NCBI GenBank assembly: GCA_030390025.1
Contig: CM059432.1
Span: 78,804,001 to 78,868,000, forward strand
Source: Squalus acanthias
Lineage: Eukaryota
DNA: 64,000 nucleotides
Direction of reading: 5' to 3'
Both the position numbers and the translations under genes were made by a program. Below, in pieces: positions 21,577 to 29,364 of this stretch (the stretch's first letter is position 1; every line of letters starts with the position of its first letter). Under the pieces are notes generated by a model. It saw nothing but the letters and a program-made list of their open reading frames with translations. It was not told where the DNA came from and ran no database searches.

Positions 21577-24048
21577 GTACAAGTGAATAACCGTGACAAT
21601 GCAAACTGTAGTGAGATGGATCTTTCCTATGTTAATGTACTTGTAAATAATCAAAGTCACCTTTGTTTTAAGAACATAAGAATTAGGAGCAGGAGTAGGC
21701 CATTTGGCCCCTCAAGCCTCCTCCGCCAGTCAATAAGATCCTCTCCAAAAGCCATATCCCACAAACTGCACCACTAGCCTCAAACACTGCTCAATTCACC
21801 ACACCCCCATCACTCACTTACCAACAATCTCTTATCAATCACGCCTCATACCTCATATTCATATGCTCCATCTCACACACTTACCACTGCTGCAAGCCTC
21901 ACACCCACATCTCACAGCTTGCACACACTGCCAGCTATTCAACCATGACAGCCACATCACCCAAAAGTGATCCACACTCACTGATACACTTCCCTTTCTC
22001 TTACAGGACAAGGTGGCGCACATACGTAGGCAGCTGCAGCTAATTGGAGGGGACAGGTGCACCTCCATATCCTGACCCCGGTCACAGAGTCGGTGCTCGC
22101 CAGAATTGGAGTGGCTGTGACTGAGAACGTGGCCAGCGGCGGCGATGAAAGCATTGAGATGACAGTGTACTCATACCTAATCCTCCTTCTCACATCCCAC
22201 TTCTCCCTCATCCCACAATCTCTTCTGACTTACAAGCTGTAGATGGTGTAAGTTTGCACCTCTTCCTTTACCATGCTCCACCCCCCTCACCATAATCCTA
22301 CCCTTGTGCCTTTCTCATTTCAGAGACCCAGGAAATCCAACCTGGCCAGCCAGTGGTGGAAGAAGACAAGGAGAGTGATAATGAAGAAGAAACACCGTCA
22401 CTTGATCTGACACTCGCAGCCACTAGCTCAGAAACTGGCACTGTGCGGACTTTAGAGGATAGCTTAGAGGCGGGATCTGCACGTGGTGAGTCACCGGGCA
22501 CGAGTGGGCTGCAGCCAGGGCAGGGGTTAAGGGTAGCGTAGGTGCCAGCTCCCCGGAGGGCGAAGTCACACATGAGTTAGGCTGCACAGGACTCCGATGA
22601 GGACTTTGATGGGGCAGCCCACAGAAGAACGCTGATGGGTAGGCACAACAAAATGCTTGGTGCATTGACAGGCCTGCCAGAAACCCTGAATGCAATGTCA
22701 AAGAGCATGGAGGAGTCCAGCTCCAGCCTTACACAGGGCTTTACGCAGAGCTTGGAGCCCATCCTTTCCAGTGTGGAAGGGATGGGCAGATCCATTAGCA
22801 CACTTGTGGACCAAACCATGATGCAGCGTCTGATGGCCGAATGTCTCAGCTTCCATTGCAGCACAAGCAGAAGCCACCCAATGTCTGAGTGCTGCAATGG
22901 AAACTCAGACTGAAGTCATGCAAGCTCAGCTTGCTGCCACGCAAGCACAGACTGCTGCCATCATGGCTGGATTTACCACTGTTGAAAGGGGCTTGCAGAG
23001 TGTCACAGCAGTCAAGCAGTCTGTCCTCCAGCAGATTACTAAGATTGCTGAGGCGCCGCCCCGGGGGATGGCACTGGCTCTGTGGAGGACGAACATGCTG
23101 TTCTCTCTCAGGATGACAGCATTCGTCTTCCCACCACTGCCACTCCGCCAGTGCCCTTGCTGTTGCGTGTCAGCCAGCCCAGACTGCTGCCGCCCATGCC
23201 GAGGTGGTGCAGTCCGAAGCCGGGCCTACTCGGCCCAAAGCTGCTCAAGGTCGTCCTACAAGGCCATCTGTAGTCTCTCCCACTGAAAGTCAGTAGCCTT
23301 CCACCAGCCATCCTGCAGCCACTGGGGTAGCACTGCATAGGAGCACTAGGACAGGCAAAGGCACTCAGAAGACAGGCACTAAGGGTGATAAGTTGACTTT
23401 TGAATGAAATATTGTAATGGTTGGATTTATAAATGTTTGTTTTGTGGTGGCTTTTATTGTAGCATTGTGGCCAAGAGAACATTGTGATGGTCAGTAACAG
23501 AGAGAAGGTAAGGTGTGGGACTATTGTTGAATGGGAAATTGGGGTTGCGTTCTCTGGTACCGCAGTTCGATGATTCAGTCACAAACAGCTCAGGCAGAAA
23601 GGGGCTGTCTGGGTTGCCTCTTCCTTTCTGCTTCCTCCTCTTCCTCTTCTTCCTCCTCCTCATCCTCCTCCTCAGCTAAGTATGCCTGGTGACAAGGGCT
23701 GTGCCCTTGTGATGGCGAGGTTGTGGAACATGCAGCATACCATGGCGAATCTTGAGACGCACTCTGGTGAGTACTGCAGGGCTCCTCCAGAGCGGTCCAG
23801 GCAGCAGAAGTGTTGTTTAATGATGCCAATGGTCTGCTCTATCAGATTCCGTGTGACAGCATGGCTTTCGTTACATGCATATAGCTCACGTGTGGTTGGG
23901 TTGTGCAGCGGAGTCATGAGCCAGGTGGTCAGCGGATAGCCCTTGTCGCCCAATAGCCACCCTCTGTTTTGTTGTGGTGGCTCAAATGCTGATGGTACAG
24001 TGGACTGCCGCAGAATGAAGGCATCATGCGTGCTGCCAGGATACCGAG

Positions 24049-24371
24049 TGTTGAATTTTAAAAATGTGCGTCGTTCGCTTGAGTAGTAACAAAGTCAACT
24101 TTTGGTTCTGGTTACAACACTTTTATTCTTGTTTCAGCACACACAGTAGTTACGCAGACAGAGTACAATTAGGTATGCGCTTTTCATATTGTACCACCTA
24201 TTGTTAGTGGGTGTAAGCAATTTATACATTTCCAATGTGGGTGTTGTGGAAAGTCATTTCTGTCTCCTATTGGTCCCTTTTTATTGTTGCAGAACCTTAT
24301 ATGGTACTACCCCTTTAGTGGTTTCCCTTCATGCCCAGACTTGCCTTTTCCTTTCTGTCCCAGTATCAATA
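24049..24371 (-). repeat. 3' LTR (323 bp)
   Basis: Direct repeat of 28130-28468 with about 21 substitutions and 6- and 10-bp indels (manual count); minus-strand AATAAA at 24122-24127. Confidence 0.95.
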
Positions 24372-24387
24372 CCTGTTACTCTTTTTT
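24372..24387 (-). promoter_or_regulatory. Polypurine tract
   Basis: Minus-strand AAAAAAGAGTAACAGG preceded by a T-run, immediately before the 3' LTR. Confidence 0.75.
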
Positions 24388-24405
24388 AAAAAAAATTTTC
24401 GCGGG

Positions 24406-25578
24406 CTACCTCTTAACAAAGGTTGTTGCACTTCCATAAACTGGTGGCCACCCCATTCCCATTACTATTTCTCTACTCTTCCTTATATCTTCTATATCCT
24501 GTATCGACTTTCTCACACAGCATAATGCAATGATCAGCAACATCTGCTCTGTGTGTTTTTGTGCGGTTCCAGTTCTGTGGATTATTGACTTCAAACTGAG
24601 GCATACAGGGTGTATATAATGTCCGATATGTGGGATCGCTTGGATTGCCTCGTCTTCCAATGGCAATTTCAGTTGGACATGTGTTACATTATAATGACGA
24701 ACCGGTACCAAAGTTTTGCCTCCTATCTTTATACTTCCTCTCTCGGATCATATGCAGAGCGATGTTCATGTGACGAGGCAGTCAGTTGTTCCTACCATCA
24801 TGCCGACTGCCGTAGTCATCACGCTCAGTTTGTTCTTCCCTTCTCCCATAATTCCAAGCCCATTTTGCAGTTTGGGGAATCATCATCCAGTGTAAAACCA
24901 CAAGCCGTAGCTCCTATTCCTAGCCAATCTGACAACCTTGCTTTTTTCGTGATTTAGGTTGATTCTCCTTATTTTCCCCATCCTTCTCGACCCTTGGCTC
25001 CGGTTTCCTATTCATTTACTAATTCTCATAACATTTCATCTATCATCATTCTGCAGATACATTTCAACTGTAACCCAAATCCTTCTTCCACCTTTACCAC
25101 ATTTTTTTCTTCCTGCCCATTATGAATGTGACATTTGCCTTTTCTTTTACTCTTCAATCTTATTAACGCCATTACACAGCATTGCGTATTCCCTGAGCCC
25201 CCATATTTTATGCTGACACACATATGTCCCATTATTATGCGGCAGAAATTTAGACCAACACAACTTAGTTCCGTTTTGATGTGACTCTTTGTCGACTTCT
25301 TCCTTCAGCCAGTTTCCTGTTTACGTTTCCGGTTTCACCTTATGGAATGTGACATCCTTGGAGTCTGGACAGGTGCATTCAAGACAAACCCCCTGGTCCT
25401 GTCCAACTAAGCGGACCTGTCGTGATAATGGAACAGTGAAGTTCCTGCTCCACCAGGTGTCTGTAAAGCTGAAGGTCTCTTTCCCCTCTATAGTAATAGT
25501 ACAATCATTCTGGGACTCGCCTTTAGCATTCATTCCATACATACTCCCGGTCAGGAACAGTAGCAGGATGTACAACAT
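24406..25578 (-). pseudogene. env-position ORF: signal peptide, two Ig-like domains and a C-terminal hydrophobic remnant (stops and frameshifts)
   Basis: MLYILLLFLTGSMYG; VCLECTC...NNGTYVC; LQLKCIC...ARLSDWLGIGATAC; MLLIIALCCVRK; upstream acceptor ttggtcttgtgtccgcag. Confidence 0.7.
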
Positions 25579-25629
25579 CTTTGTCACTGCTTCACCTGCG
25601 GACACAAGACCAAATGTAGCATTTATTCT

Positions 25630-26366
25630 TTATTCAACATCTGCACCCTTTTTATAGGGTTTACACTGATCCCCGTGATACCACATGTATTGTATTTTCC
25701 TTCCTCATTTCTGGATGGCCAATTTAATGTTGGTTTCTCCCAATTTGTCCATGATTTCATATGGGCCTTCCCAGTTAGCCTCCCAGGCCGCCCCCCCCCA
25801 AATTTTTTATAACATAACTTGATCGCCAATTGAGTAGGTGATACGACAAGTAGTGTGATTATCCTTGGTGGTGTTAAGATGGGTCGCACCCATCTTCTCT
25901 GCTGCAAGGATCAGAGTAGACTCTAAGGATTGATGGAGGCTCTGGAGGAACTGGTCATGGGTCTGACGAGTAGCAATGGGGAGTGGGACCCCCATCAGGT
26001 GTGCAGATACATTTGTCGGCCTGTCATGTGTTCAAATGGGCTGTGACCCGTAGAGCTCACTGGTGTGACGCGTATGGCCATACACAATGATAATTCAAAC
26101 TTAATGTTGCCAATTTCCAATTGGAAGGGAACGGTCATCTCCGCCGAAACACCTCCTCCTACATACCAAACACCTCCTCCTACAATCCCAAACAACTGCA
26201 GGCGATGCCCGCTAGAGGGGAAATCTCTGTGGTGAGTAATGGAACAGGAAGCCCCCGTATCCACTAAGAAGTTGTCTCGGCGGCCTCTTACCAAGGCTGG
26301 AACACAAGGTCTACCCTCATCATCATATTGGAGCTGACTCACCACAGCTATTGAGGTCCGTCCCCG
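25630..26366 (-). pseudogene. Retropepsin protease fused to the integrase C-terminus
   Basis: FLVDTGASCS, then AIRVTPVSSTGHSPFEHMTGR, YSIGDQVM and NWEGPYEI...WYHGDQCKPY (GPY/F module). Confidence 0.88.
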
Positions 26367-27800
26367 TTAATCCTTCTTAAAAGGATTTTTGGGGTCCGTG
26401 GCTCTACCATAATTGCTTATTTCTACCATCCTCTGTAGGGCCTGAAAGGCTTATAAATACACATTCTGCTCATCTGCGAGAGGTGGGAATGAGATTCCCT
26501 GTACCCCTACCTGCTTAGGTCCCTACCTGTAGGCTCCTCCTCCCCTAGCCCAACACTGTCTTTTAACGTGTCCTGACTTGCCACAGTTATAGCAAGGTCT
26601 TCCTCCTTTTGCTCCTTCATAAGTCACAGCTGCTGCTGCCCGTTTCATCTTTGAAATTACTGGGGGTCTTTAATCGAGTTGGGATTCGTACCAGGCTAGG
26701 AGGGCCATTTGGATGTCCCTCCCTATTCCTGCCCGCGGATTAGCTGCCATTAATTCCATGGCATACTGACGGAGCATATGCTCACAGGCAGGACTGACGA
26801 GGGTCTTGTACCTGCTAATCACCAATGTCCAAAATGTGGGATCATTCCCGGTTAACTCCACTCGTTGATAGCCCCCACAATTCTGATTATACACCTCCAC
26901 AAAGGCTCTCAGATATTGAGTTGGGTGCTCGTCCCTGGGCTTATGGTCCCATATCCACCATAACCCTATATATCACAGGCTCACACACCATGTCCTCGCA
27001 CACATCATGGTTTGGGAATTCCGGTCCCTCTATAAACCACTTAGCTAGTGTCAAGCCTGGAGGTAAGGCAGCCTGTAGCAGTCGACAAGCATCCTTGTTT
27101 GTCAAGGCGTGCACCTGCTGTAGCGATCGTACTTTATTTAATAGCTGGGTTGCATCTCCCACCCCATCATATTTGGGCAGTTGGCCACTAAGTTGGCATA
27201 ATTCCAAGAGAGTTAGGTCCCTACATATATATATATATTCTGTTCGACCCTTCCCAGCTGTCATTCCATGTGTATGCAGGCGATTGGTTACTATGGGGGC
27301 CACTAAGCGCCCACCCGTACTGCTACCTGCCGCATGGGACCGAGTGTGATTGGCTATACTATCTGCACTGCTGCTAACTATGTACGATGGAGATTGACTT
27401 AAACTGTCATCATCCTCCTTGCGCCACATTTATCTGCCCATGGCGGGGAACCGGGAATTGAGGGTGCCGATGGGAGGACTGTATCACCCTCGTCATTATC
27501 ACTACTGGATTTCTCCTCACAAGTGCCGAAGGAAAGGCTGCCACTCTAACCCTTAATTCTATTTTTTTTAAATTGTCCTCCTCCCTTCCATGCCGTTCTT
27601 CCCTTAATTTCCTTATTATGCATAGGACTATCGCCAATGTTACTAACACTACTAGCTGAGCAACAACTAGCCCCATCTGGAACAGACTTGCCCATACCCT
27701 CCACGAGGGTACTCCTTTATCATCTTTATCCAGTTTTACAGCTGCTTTACGTTTGGCCCTCTCACTCTTGGACTCGGCCTTTATTGGAGGTGATCAGTCT
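26367..27800 (-). pseudogene. gag-like gene with CCHC zinc knuckle
   Basis: CYNCGKSGHVKRQC at 26553-26594; capsid-like APIVT...YICRDLTLLELCQLSGQLP; several in-frame stops and frameshifts; 5' limit approximate. Confidence 0.82.
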
Positions 27801-28129
27801 CCAATATTTCTTCCCTTACAACAACCTCCCCTTCTATGATACCTATAGAGATTGAGGACTGTATAACTGGAACTGTGGTTTCCCGGCCACTGTCACGTTA
27901 TAACGTCATACAACTTGATGTCTGCTCTACTCACTAAAAAATTGAATACTACTCACACTTGTGCATGTAGGTTTTTTTTATCCTGTGTTTTGCTGTGTAG
28001 TTGTCACCGTGGGTTGGCGTCGATGGAAGTAGTCTACCTCCTGTTCCAGGGCTCGTCCAGATCGAGTCTTTGGTGGTTCAGGTTTCACTTCAGTCCGATG
28101 TCGACCATCCCGGTTTTCAAAAAGCCGCA

Positions 28130-28468
28130 AGTTGAATTTTAAAAACGTGTGTCATTCGCTTGAGTAGTAACAAAGTCAGCTTTTGGTTCTTGTTACAACA
28201 CTTTTATTCTTGCTTCAGCACACACAGTAGTTATGCAGACAGAGTGGAATTAAAAGTAGGTATGTGCTTTTCACATTGTACCACCGATTGTTAGTGGGTG
28301 TAAACTATTTATATATTTCCAATGTGGGTGTTGTGGAAAGTCCTTTCTGTCTCTTATTGGTCCCTTTTTATTGTTGCAGAACCTTATATGGTACTACCCC
28401 TTTAGTGGTTTCCCTTCATGCCCAGACTTGCCTTGACTTGCCTTTTCCTTTCTGTCCTTGTATCAACA
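28130..28468 (-). repeat. 5' LTR (339 bp) with CCAAT, TATA and AATAAA
   Basis: On the minus strand: CCAAT 28356-28360, TATATAAA 28308-28315, AATAAA 28203-28208, in U3-R order. Confidence 0.93.
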
Positions 28469-29364
28469 CCGAGCATTGACTTGCATGATGCGCTGAGTAT
28501 GGTCGCACACCAGCTGGACGTTGAGGGAGTGGAATCCCTTCCGGTTGCAGTACATCTCCAAATTGAAATGCAGCGCCCGCAAAGCAGTCAATGGCATCCT
28601 GCACCATGGGGAAGCATGCTATCCTGGCAAAGCCGCGTGCTCGCACCGCCTGCTTTTCCCTGGCAAGAGAGAATGAAATGTACTCCGCTCTCCTTGCATA
28701 CAGAGCCTCACTCACCTCCCTTATACAGGAGTGGACGGTGAACTGGAAGATGTCGCAGTTCCAGCCTGAAGGAGCCCAACGCAAAGAAGTTCAAAGCCAC
28801 GGTCACCTTTACAGCCTCTAGCAATGCCGTTCAACCTTGGACTGATGTCGCAGGTCTGTCTGCAGCAGGTGGTAGATTTCAGTGATCACCTCCTTAGTAA
28901 AACAGAGACATCGCTGAGGTTGAGGTAGGAGAATTGCTCCCTGAAGACCCTGGGTGGATATGGCCTCCTGCTGAGAGCCCTTCTCCCCCTCCTCCTCCTG
29001 CCTCTTCAAGCAACTTGTCCAGCTCTGTGTCGCCTCTGCTCATTCTCCCTGTCATGCTGCAGTCCAAGAGGGATACAAACTACTGCACCCATGTCTGGGT
29101 GCAACTGGTCTGAGCAGACCCCTTGCAAGTCAGTACTAAGTCCCTGAGCCCGTGCCACACCACTCCTTGTAGACTTTAGGCAACTTTAAAGAAGTCTAGA
29201 AACACTTCTACAAACTCAGCAACAGCTAGTAGAAATCAATCAGCAATTAACCTGTAAGTAGGTGACAATCCCTTTAAATAGCGTTGGTGGGGGGTCCTTC
29301 CTGCTGCTGTACACACTGCAGCCACGGTGCGTCAGTGGTGGAGGGAGTGAATGTTTAACATTCT

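Follow-up and report, generated by a model that had tools for sequence, protein, structure and literature searches.

The minus strand of a 64,000-nucleotide stretch of Squalus acanthias DNA (assembly GCA_030390025.1, contig CM059432.1, positions 78,804,001 to 78,868,000; hereafter the window, within which all positions are counted) carries a retrovirus-like element at 24049-28468 that raises a simple question: what is the third gene that follows gag and pol, and from what kind of virus did it come? An earlier note on the sequence had read this gene as one spliced open reading frame (ORF) with tandem immunoglobulin (Ig)-like folds instead of a CKS-17/CX6CC signature, and had offered a lokiretrovirus-like, an epsilon-like or an enveloped Gypsy home for the endogenous retrovirus (ERV). 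Here, we describe evidence for a reading to which we give a probability of roughly 0.8: the element is a decayed ERV without a polymerase, likely copied with enzymes that a related full-length virus supplied, and the third gene is what is left of an envelope gene (env) whose protein (Env) is predicted to have combined Ig-like domains with a fusogen of the paramyxovirus fusion protein (F) type.

A Pfam scan of the window's third ORF returned no family. As query into 1.84 billion representative sequences we used the natural 177-residue open frame of a sibling copy, L020, and two of its four matches are real: GCC29952.1 (P0075) from Chiloscyllium punctatum, 739 amino acids long with E 1.7e-36 to the L020 frame, and KAM8960540.1 (P0077) from the frog Pelodytes ibericus, an intact protein of 723 amino acids (E 6e-5) that is 29% identical to GCC29952.1. 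The other two, P0076 and P0078, were set aside as chance matches of the representative search. Relatives of GCC29952.1 are intact in Scyliorhinus torazame and Heterodontus francisci (754 amino acids each, 85-88% identical; accessions XP_072333160.1, P0090, and XP_067889054.1, P0091), and the intact homologous envelopes span 739-784 residues. The window's third ORF aligns to residues 84-98, 288-302, 538-562 and 568-706 of XP_072333160.1 (best E 2e-25); judged by the gaps in this alignment, two blocks of ~150-190 and 235 residues are gone. The best hydropathy is 1.14 in the window's third ORF versus 2.47 in XP_072333160.1. The gene lies in the env position, as had been proposed, but it is not one ORF: it carries stops, frameshifts and two large deletions, and it lacks a transmembrane stretch.

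Read along the minus strand, the remnant begins with a candidate splice acceptor at 25596-25615, where a pyrimidine-rich tract and CAG/G are kept in siblings, followed by a start codon and a signal-peptide-like stretch, as judged by sequence, at 25519-25578, likewise kept in siblings. A candidate first Ig-like domain specific to the subfamily, recognised by a profile match, occupies 25207-25476 and is interrupted by one stop at 25323-25321. A stub of a second, family-wide Ig-like domain at 25053-25097 matches residues 84-98 of XP_072333160.1, which fall within the Ig-like portion (residues 56-184) of the structural model described below, and ends at the junction of env deletion 1 (25040-25052), which is common to four other loci and removed the remainder of this domain together with the start of F2. 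A decayed furin site and the start of the fusion peptide lie at 24903-24947, before env deletion 2, and the Cys-rich C-terminal part of an F-type ectodomain, broken and without its transmembrane stretch, fills 24400-24905 (tblastn E 2e-25 to XP_072333160.1). A trypsin-like reading of this last part, suggested by a motif, was dropped, as the region aligns to the Env ectodomain. In siblings a basic cleavage site persists, and so do a heptad region and a Gly-rich stretch resembling a fusion peptide. The splice acceptor that had been noted before the third ORF stands as a candidate: an acceptor-like site and the ATG recur in three independent sibling loci besides the window. A candidate donor in the leader at 27945-27960 (minus strand) reads GTGAGT in 5/7 related rows and GAGAGT in 2/7. 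No spliced env read or contig was seen among the public joints shown; the donor- and acceptor-like sites are conserved.

An AlphaFold2 model of XP_072333160.1, built from 21 alignment rows, points to the fusogen class. Residues 204-612 of the model resemble the F protein both of paramyxoviruses and of pneumoviruses (Foldseek E 4e-9; VIA Z 10.2, root-mean-square deviation [rmsd] 4.9 over 286 residues), and the model also matches foamy virus Env (8rm0) with Z 8.2. Among predicted viral structures, the named top matches were the Envs of the walleye viruses WEHV-1 (E 9e-12) and WDSV (E 4e-9), and F proteins. In agreement with the earlier note, neither the gamma-type immunosuppressive domain (ISD; CKS-17) nor CX6CC was seen in the alignment of intact homologues, and there was no TLV_coat match; this is expected of an Env that is not gamma-type but, by prediction, F-type. 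The third gene is therefore predicted, from the model, to be the broken remnant of an Env in which Ig-like domains precede a paramyxovirus-F-type fusogen. The Ig-like folds do not replace a fusion machinery but would stand in front of one that has lost two large pieces in this copy.

For the family-wide domain, residues 56-184 of the model resemble Ig-type and cadherin sandwiches (Z 6.3-7.4, rmsd about 3), and the domain-level matches are mostly Ig-type or cadherin; we read it with moderate confidence as an Ig-like beta sandwich. UniRef lists GCC29952.1 as an Ig-like domain protein, and a search of the ESM Atlas with the same protein gave one unnamed chordate cluster at 0.82, which serves as a lead only. 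The extra first domain of the window's subfamily has no match in the pol-bearing relatives at E 1e-4, and a word-index search for it among longer proteins found none at E 0.1. Its profile aligns to the family Ig-like domain over 85 columns (P 63.7, E 6.7e-5), and its fold model has a predicted local distance difference test score (pLDDT) of 39 and a best Z of 3.1, values too low to be informative. The likeliest reading of these comparisons is that the first domain arose as a tandem duplicate of the family Ig-like domain. The tandem folds described earlier survive in the window as one whole candidate domain, whereas the second is a 15-residue stub; most copies of the window family have only such a stub, and both domains occur together only in a decayed relative on contig C21.

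Other env frames in the genome were recorded separately. In a related lineage, an env frame stays open for 784 codons behind a broken pol at L085:1189-3540 (C4:121.88M), with LTR-like repeats, ~90% identical, flanking the env part only (LTR, long terminal repeat). A younger ERV of about 8.1 kb, with 1147-bp LTRs that are 97.8% identical, sits in antisense orientation within a relative's integrase tail (L062:1147-3570 and L112, C1615:0.288-0.296M; L074:9365-9999), and its env combines an F-type body with an Ig-like domain (Pfam Ig_3 E 0.0067). An apparent second env type in the relatives was rejected, as it belongs to this nested antisense ERV with its own 1147-bp LTRs.

The loss of the polymerase is recorded in the window itself. 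On the minus strand, the protease (26076-26366, with the DTG of its active site at 26261-26253; it passes the Pfam RVP cut-off with E 1.7e-4) reads straight into an integrase C-terminal remnant with a GPY/F motif (25630-26075; weak SH3_Tf2-1 match, E 0.11), so that both the LVDTGA protease and the integrase tail noticed at first are upheld. At the junction between them (26076-26081), ~2.9 kb comprising reverse transcriptase (RT), tether, RNase H and integrase core are gone. Upstream lies a broken gag (26527-27793, minus strand) with the remnant of an N-terminal coiled coil, a capsid region and, as noted before, a CCHC knuckle, at 26594-26553; gag relatives have two knuckles versus one here. 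In the following, C8, C1, C21, C3751 and C3696 denote contigs of the 3.7-Gb Squalus acanthias genome, with the window at C8:78.8M. An env DNA query gave 10 matches in this genome, and an LTR query, for which the best 40 of 62 candidates were scored, gave 42. Over most pieces the close siblings show 77-90% identity (~70% for the C21 relative); all are old, several have nested long interspersed nuclear elements, and RT is absent from every close sibling examined. That they carry the third ORF shows that it is not a one-off insertion in the window.

The protease-integrase junction is common to the window, C1:218.6M and two near-identical C3751 copies, i.e., to three independent loci, and its 6-mer ATGGCC is found at both sides of the break in full-length relatives; the C21 and C3696 relatives have different deletions. 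Because the junction is common to several loci, we infer that pol was lost once and that the short form was then copied in trans. Env deletion 1 is shared by five independent loci including the window, so that a working fusogen was already missing from the form that was amplified. Env deletion 2, which removed the heptad repeat and most of F1, occurs in no sibling locus examined, and siblings retain that part. None of 27 further LTR loci fetched has internal sequence of the window's family within 5 kb (0/27), and at these 27 solo LTRs 5-bp duplications, scored by eye, are exact in 8 and have one mismatch in 5. The window element, one dead member of a small family that is not autonomous, makes no working protein. 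None of the public runs that hold the element is on record as RNA, and the low, flat contigs in runs presumed to be RNA are uninformative on transcription.

Which virus could have supplied the enzymes? A protease search, in which the best 150 of 3167 candidates were scored, led to 20 stretches; 12 of them contain RT, and in these the DNA is 72-79% identical to gag and protease of the window. The intact RT-bearing siblings that the earlier note had hoped for were thus found as relatives but not with the window's LTR. The relatives' pol encodes RVT_1 with a YVDD motif, a tether-type RNase H (RT_RNaseH_2), a second RNase_H and an rve integrase; this retroviral order of RT, tether, second RNase H and integrase is complete in the relatives and deleted in the window. 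At seven relatives' loci gag, pol and the same env type follow in order, which bears out the ERV architecture originally proposed, and their gag matches zf-CCHC at E 3.8e-6. A primer-binding site complementary to tRNA-Arg(ACG) is present in L078 (12/12 bases) and at C1:218.6M (11/12). Among database proteins the RT comes closest, at 42-51% identity, to pols of frogs and coelacanth that are unnamed or labelled "NYNRIN-like", and next to those of birds. In a quick tree of 98 rows the relatives group weakly (support 84) with the snakehead retrovirus (SnRV) and the frog and coelacanth pols, and in a careful tree of 28 rows and 382 columns they again fall with the frog and coelacanth pols, the branching within this group not being settled. 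These trees hold no foamy or ERV-L RT; the two Loki-type and the SnRV references were identified by motif, and the other reference labels come from Pfam content and source names. One stretch, L104, fell among Gypsy rows and was disregarded because of its long branch and partly out-of-frame sequence. Epsilon-like and bird gamma-like references are split off by branches with support 99/98 and 100/98, and Gypsy references by 100/99 and 99/96, which removes both the epsilon-like and the enveloped Gypsy home. Judged by its RT, the lineage belongs with retroviruses of a class III-like kind and with none of Loki, epsilon and Gypsy. In birds, from ostrich and kiwi to songbirds, a long conserved pol labelled "NYNRIN-like" (P0014, P0015, P0017 and cluster members) branches off at the margin of the relatives' retroviral group; its RT has an altered catalytic motif, and it looks like a domesticated pol.

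The proposed kinship with lokiretroviruses would extend these viruses to cartilaginous fishes, and several traits speak for it. Lokiretroviruses have gag, pol and env between LTRs, a tether plus RNase H, an upstream coiled-coil region and an F-like Env that includes a signal peptide, an RxKR site, a fusion peptide and a coiled coil (PMC7947760), and the F-like Env with an RxKR site, the two RNase H domains and the upstream coiled-coil region are all present in the family studied here. The RT tells otherwise: it is 35% identical to Loki-type RTs versus 43-52% to the frog and coelacanth group, and a clade with Loki is rejected by the approximately unbiased (AU) test (p-AU 5.9e-11). The motif RCPFG of Loki reads LPQGF in the window's relatives; in the Wang and Han supplement, RCPFG appears 76 times, in Loki where shown, and LPQGFH three times, each in SnRV (PMC7947760). 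The available text of the same paper reports Loki in 0/3 chondrichthyan genomes and mentions no Ig-like domain for Loki Env. A lokiretroviral origin is therefore very improbable, and on the RT it is refuted unless the window's gag and env came with a pol other than that of the 75%-identical relatives. A basal foamy-like virus (clade Tu), as opposed to a virus on the SnRV side or a separate class III lineage, is likelier than Loki but still unlikely. The best solved-structure match of the RT is foamy Pol at 200 bits, ahead of the murine leukaemia virus (MLV) group at 177 and Ty3 at 130; foamy Env is F-like (PMC11468914), in line with the Z 8.2 match given above, and shark and frog foamy-like ERVs have been described, with pol only (PMC5512871). 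On the other side, both the relatives and the window have Gag with CCHC knuckles and an Env that starts with a short signal-peptide-like stretch, and no accessory ORFs were seen between env and LTR in the relatives. Foamy viruses are not known to have Cys-His knuckles in Gag or an Env that begins with such a short stretch.

A further alternative concerns function rather than descent. The short family might be a functional satellite: after env deletion 1 the product of the third gene would be an Ig-like protein, ~190 residues long and made up of signal peptide, first domain and stub, that is secreted, binds the receptor and might keep the parent virus from infecting. Several observations would suit such a role, including the presence of deletion 1 at five independent loci, the closure of the upstream frame within a few codons past the junction in four sibling loci, a natural 101-codon open frame in L011 that extends from the first domain across the stub as far as this stop, and the retained acceptor-like site and signal-peptide-like stretch. 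Yet the first domain is broken in every copy examined, and passive copying explains the retention equally well, which makes a satellite function improbable.

We prefer the reading of a polymerase-less ERV, likely copied in trans, with the broken remnant of an envelope predicted to be Ig-like and F-type; several points weigh against it. The model of XP_072333160.1 has a mean pLDDT of 53 and a predicted template modelling score of 0.31, i.e., modest confidence; Z values of ~7 are common among beta sandwiches; and the profile of the first domain reaches the full env alignment at only E 0.25, so that the Ig tie runs through a weak profile match. The careful tree sets SnRV beside class I references (99/98) and not as sister to the relatives, so that Huo, Tu and a separate lineage are all candidate placements. 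No pol-bearing copy with the window's LTR was found in searches that scored only the best candidates. On the preferred reading, the parent virus would have expressed its Env from a spliced RNA and had it cut by furin, with the Ig-like head binding a cell receptor and the F core driving membrane fusion. The head would have been doubled in the window's sub-lineage; pol would then have been lost by a template jump at the 6-base repeat and env shortened. The family may have spread as a passenger retaining LTRs, Arg primer site and gag, until the window copy came to lie in a Harbinger transposon, after which its primer site was deleted and the rest decayed.

The same env clade offers a contrast between broken and intact copies. 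In the Squalus acanthias genome it is present at 66-80% identity, stops or frameshifts interrupt the copies listed over long stretches, and pol lies upstream in two that were fetched. Compared with XP_072333160.1, radical changes amount to 25% in the two intact proteins versus 41% in nine broken Squalus acanthias loci, and Cys or Trp residues are lost at 1/78 versus 38/238 positions (Fisher p 2e-5 and 2e-4; two duplicate loci were dropped and stretches below 65% identity excluded, and the copies are not independent). This sequence pattern fits purifying selection on the intact shark env. A replicating virus is likewise under selection, which weighs against domestication as the sole source of the signal, and the intact Ig-plus-F env of three shark orders is accordingly a candidate domesticated gene. 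We tentatively propose, as a view somewhat short of even odds, an unnamed class III-like lineage in sharks, frogs and coelacanth whose Env places one or two Ig-like heads on a paramyxovirus-F core, with one env domesticated before the split of horn, carpet and ground sharks and intact since. If true, it would be a co-opted retroviral envelope of F type, not gamma type, in sharks and among the oldest env-derived genes known.

The components of this unusual envelope class are already known. F-like Envs are on record from lokiretroviruses (PMC7947760), from foamy viruses (PMC11468914) and from errantiviruses of invertebrates (PMC13524379). The F-type fusion core is shared with foamy and walleye epsilonretrovirus Envs, but foamy Env has its own receptor-binding domain inserted in the core (PMC11468914), whereas here a separate Ig-like domain stands in front. 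Gamma-type Envs (MLV, Env-Pb1) also have an N-terminal Ig-like module, for which doubling and transfer have been described, but it sits on surface and transmembrane subunits with ISD and CX6CC and not on an F-type core (10.1101/2024.03.17.585361). SnRV and clade Huo, including the elephant shark CmiERV lineage I, are class III-like and known from cartilaginous fish (PMC4422223, PMC6001957), and SnRV shares the RT motif type (P0025, the SnRV text in the Wang and Han supplement, PMC7947760), yet at the RT level, where the comparison was made, it is 36% identical and not sister in the careful tree. Like the window's relatives, SnRV reportedly has an Arg primer site. The zebrafish BHIKHARI elements are likewise Pol-less LTR elements with a coiled-coil Gag, but they are Loki-related and young, with gag intact and no env (10.1101/2024.03.25.586437), whereas the window family is old and broken and has env remnants. 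In the literature searched, outside which lay most subscription papers and preprint supplements, an F-type retroviral Env with an Ig-like head was nowhere described, and neither was the shark gene; nor was a named family found for the element, with Dfam and Repbase outside the search. What is new is the Ig-like doubling, the shared deletions and the intact 739-754-amino-acid shark homologue, which bears signs of purifying selection. The surveys of env genes in fish and sharks that we consulted relied on queries of gamma or beta type (10.1101/2021.11.23.469661; 10.64898/2026.05.06.723177), the 2026 preprint on shark env genes screening for gamma-type features alone; with such queries the F-type class would fall outside the surveys' coverage. 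F-type envelopes connect retroviruses with paramyxo- and pneumoviruses, and a head that can be doubled is a concrete candidate for cell binding without a separate attachment protein. The intact gene of three shark orders provides a testable candidate for a domesticated F-type env, and the dead window locus is valuable as a pointer to it and as a record of how a passenger family originated.

The boundaries of the element are firm. Copies of CCGAG at 24044-24048 and 28469-28473 flank 24049-28468, as the earlier note had it, and public contigs of other Harbinger copies give the empty site, joining 24042 to 28468; the 4425 bases skipped correspond to the element plus one copy of the duplication. 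Paired LTRs with TG...CA outer ends and a 5-bp target duplication are as in retroviruses. On the minus strand, the 5' LTR (28131-28468) measures 338 bp, one less than first stated, and the 3' LTR (24049-24371) the expected 323 bp. The ends noted as TGTTGA and TCAACA hold for the outer ends only, at the 5' LTR start and the 3' LTR end: the 3' LTR starts with TATTGA, and a short deletion private to this copy removed the last base of the 5' LTR and ~25 bases that hold the primer-binding site in siblings. The polypurine tract that had been noted is present at 24372-24387 (minus strand) but degenerate. Of about 21 differences first counted between the LTRs, 20 are substitutions over 322 aligned columns (Kimura two-parameter distance, K2P, 0.065) and the 21st is the edge of a deletion. 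Sibling LTR pairs have K2P values of 0.088, 0.125 and 0.146; as these are higher, the window copy is among the younger of the family. A K2P of 0.065 would translate into ~150 million years at 2.2e-10, the rate assumed for elephant shark by Han 2015, and into ~15 million years at the mammalian rate quoted alongside (PMC4422223), and the age may lie anywhere between the two. Contigs from another organism's run, ~96% identical, span the pol junction and env deletion 2, and their sequence suggests a candidate orthologous insertion in that organism.

The element landed inside a Harbinger-type transposase ORF (23672-28790, minus strand), with Pfam DDE_Tnp_4 matches on both sides (E 3.2e-21 and 7.9e-4; profile positions 11-47 before and 39-158 after). 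The transposase parts (23600-24048 and 28469-28790) are very high-copy in public runs; in one of them their summed depth exceeds that of the ERV part thousands of times over. Plus-strand exons of a host gene of the Fe-ADH family lie on either side, at about 21500 and 31600, so the antisense position between host exons stands; the gene is presumably ADHFE1, going by its sequence motifs, and the intron given earlier as the seventh would be so by human exon numbering. Within gag, the frame at 27410-27793 (minus strand) includes ~24 strongly hydrophobic residues in a row ahead of the coiled-coil remnant, and relatives have a longer coiled-coil ORF at this position (L074:777-1286). The flap region of the protease contains a 21-bp tandem duplication (26147-26188), and a 22-bp inverted repeat with a 24-bp spacer lies upstream of the Harbinger remnant at 22843-22910.

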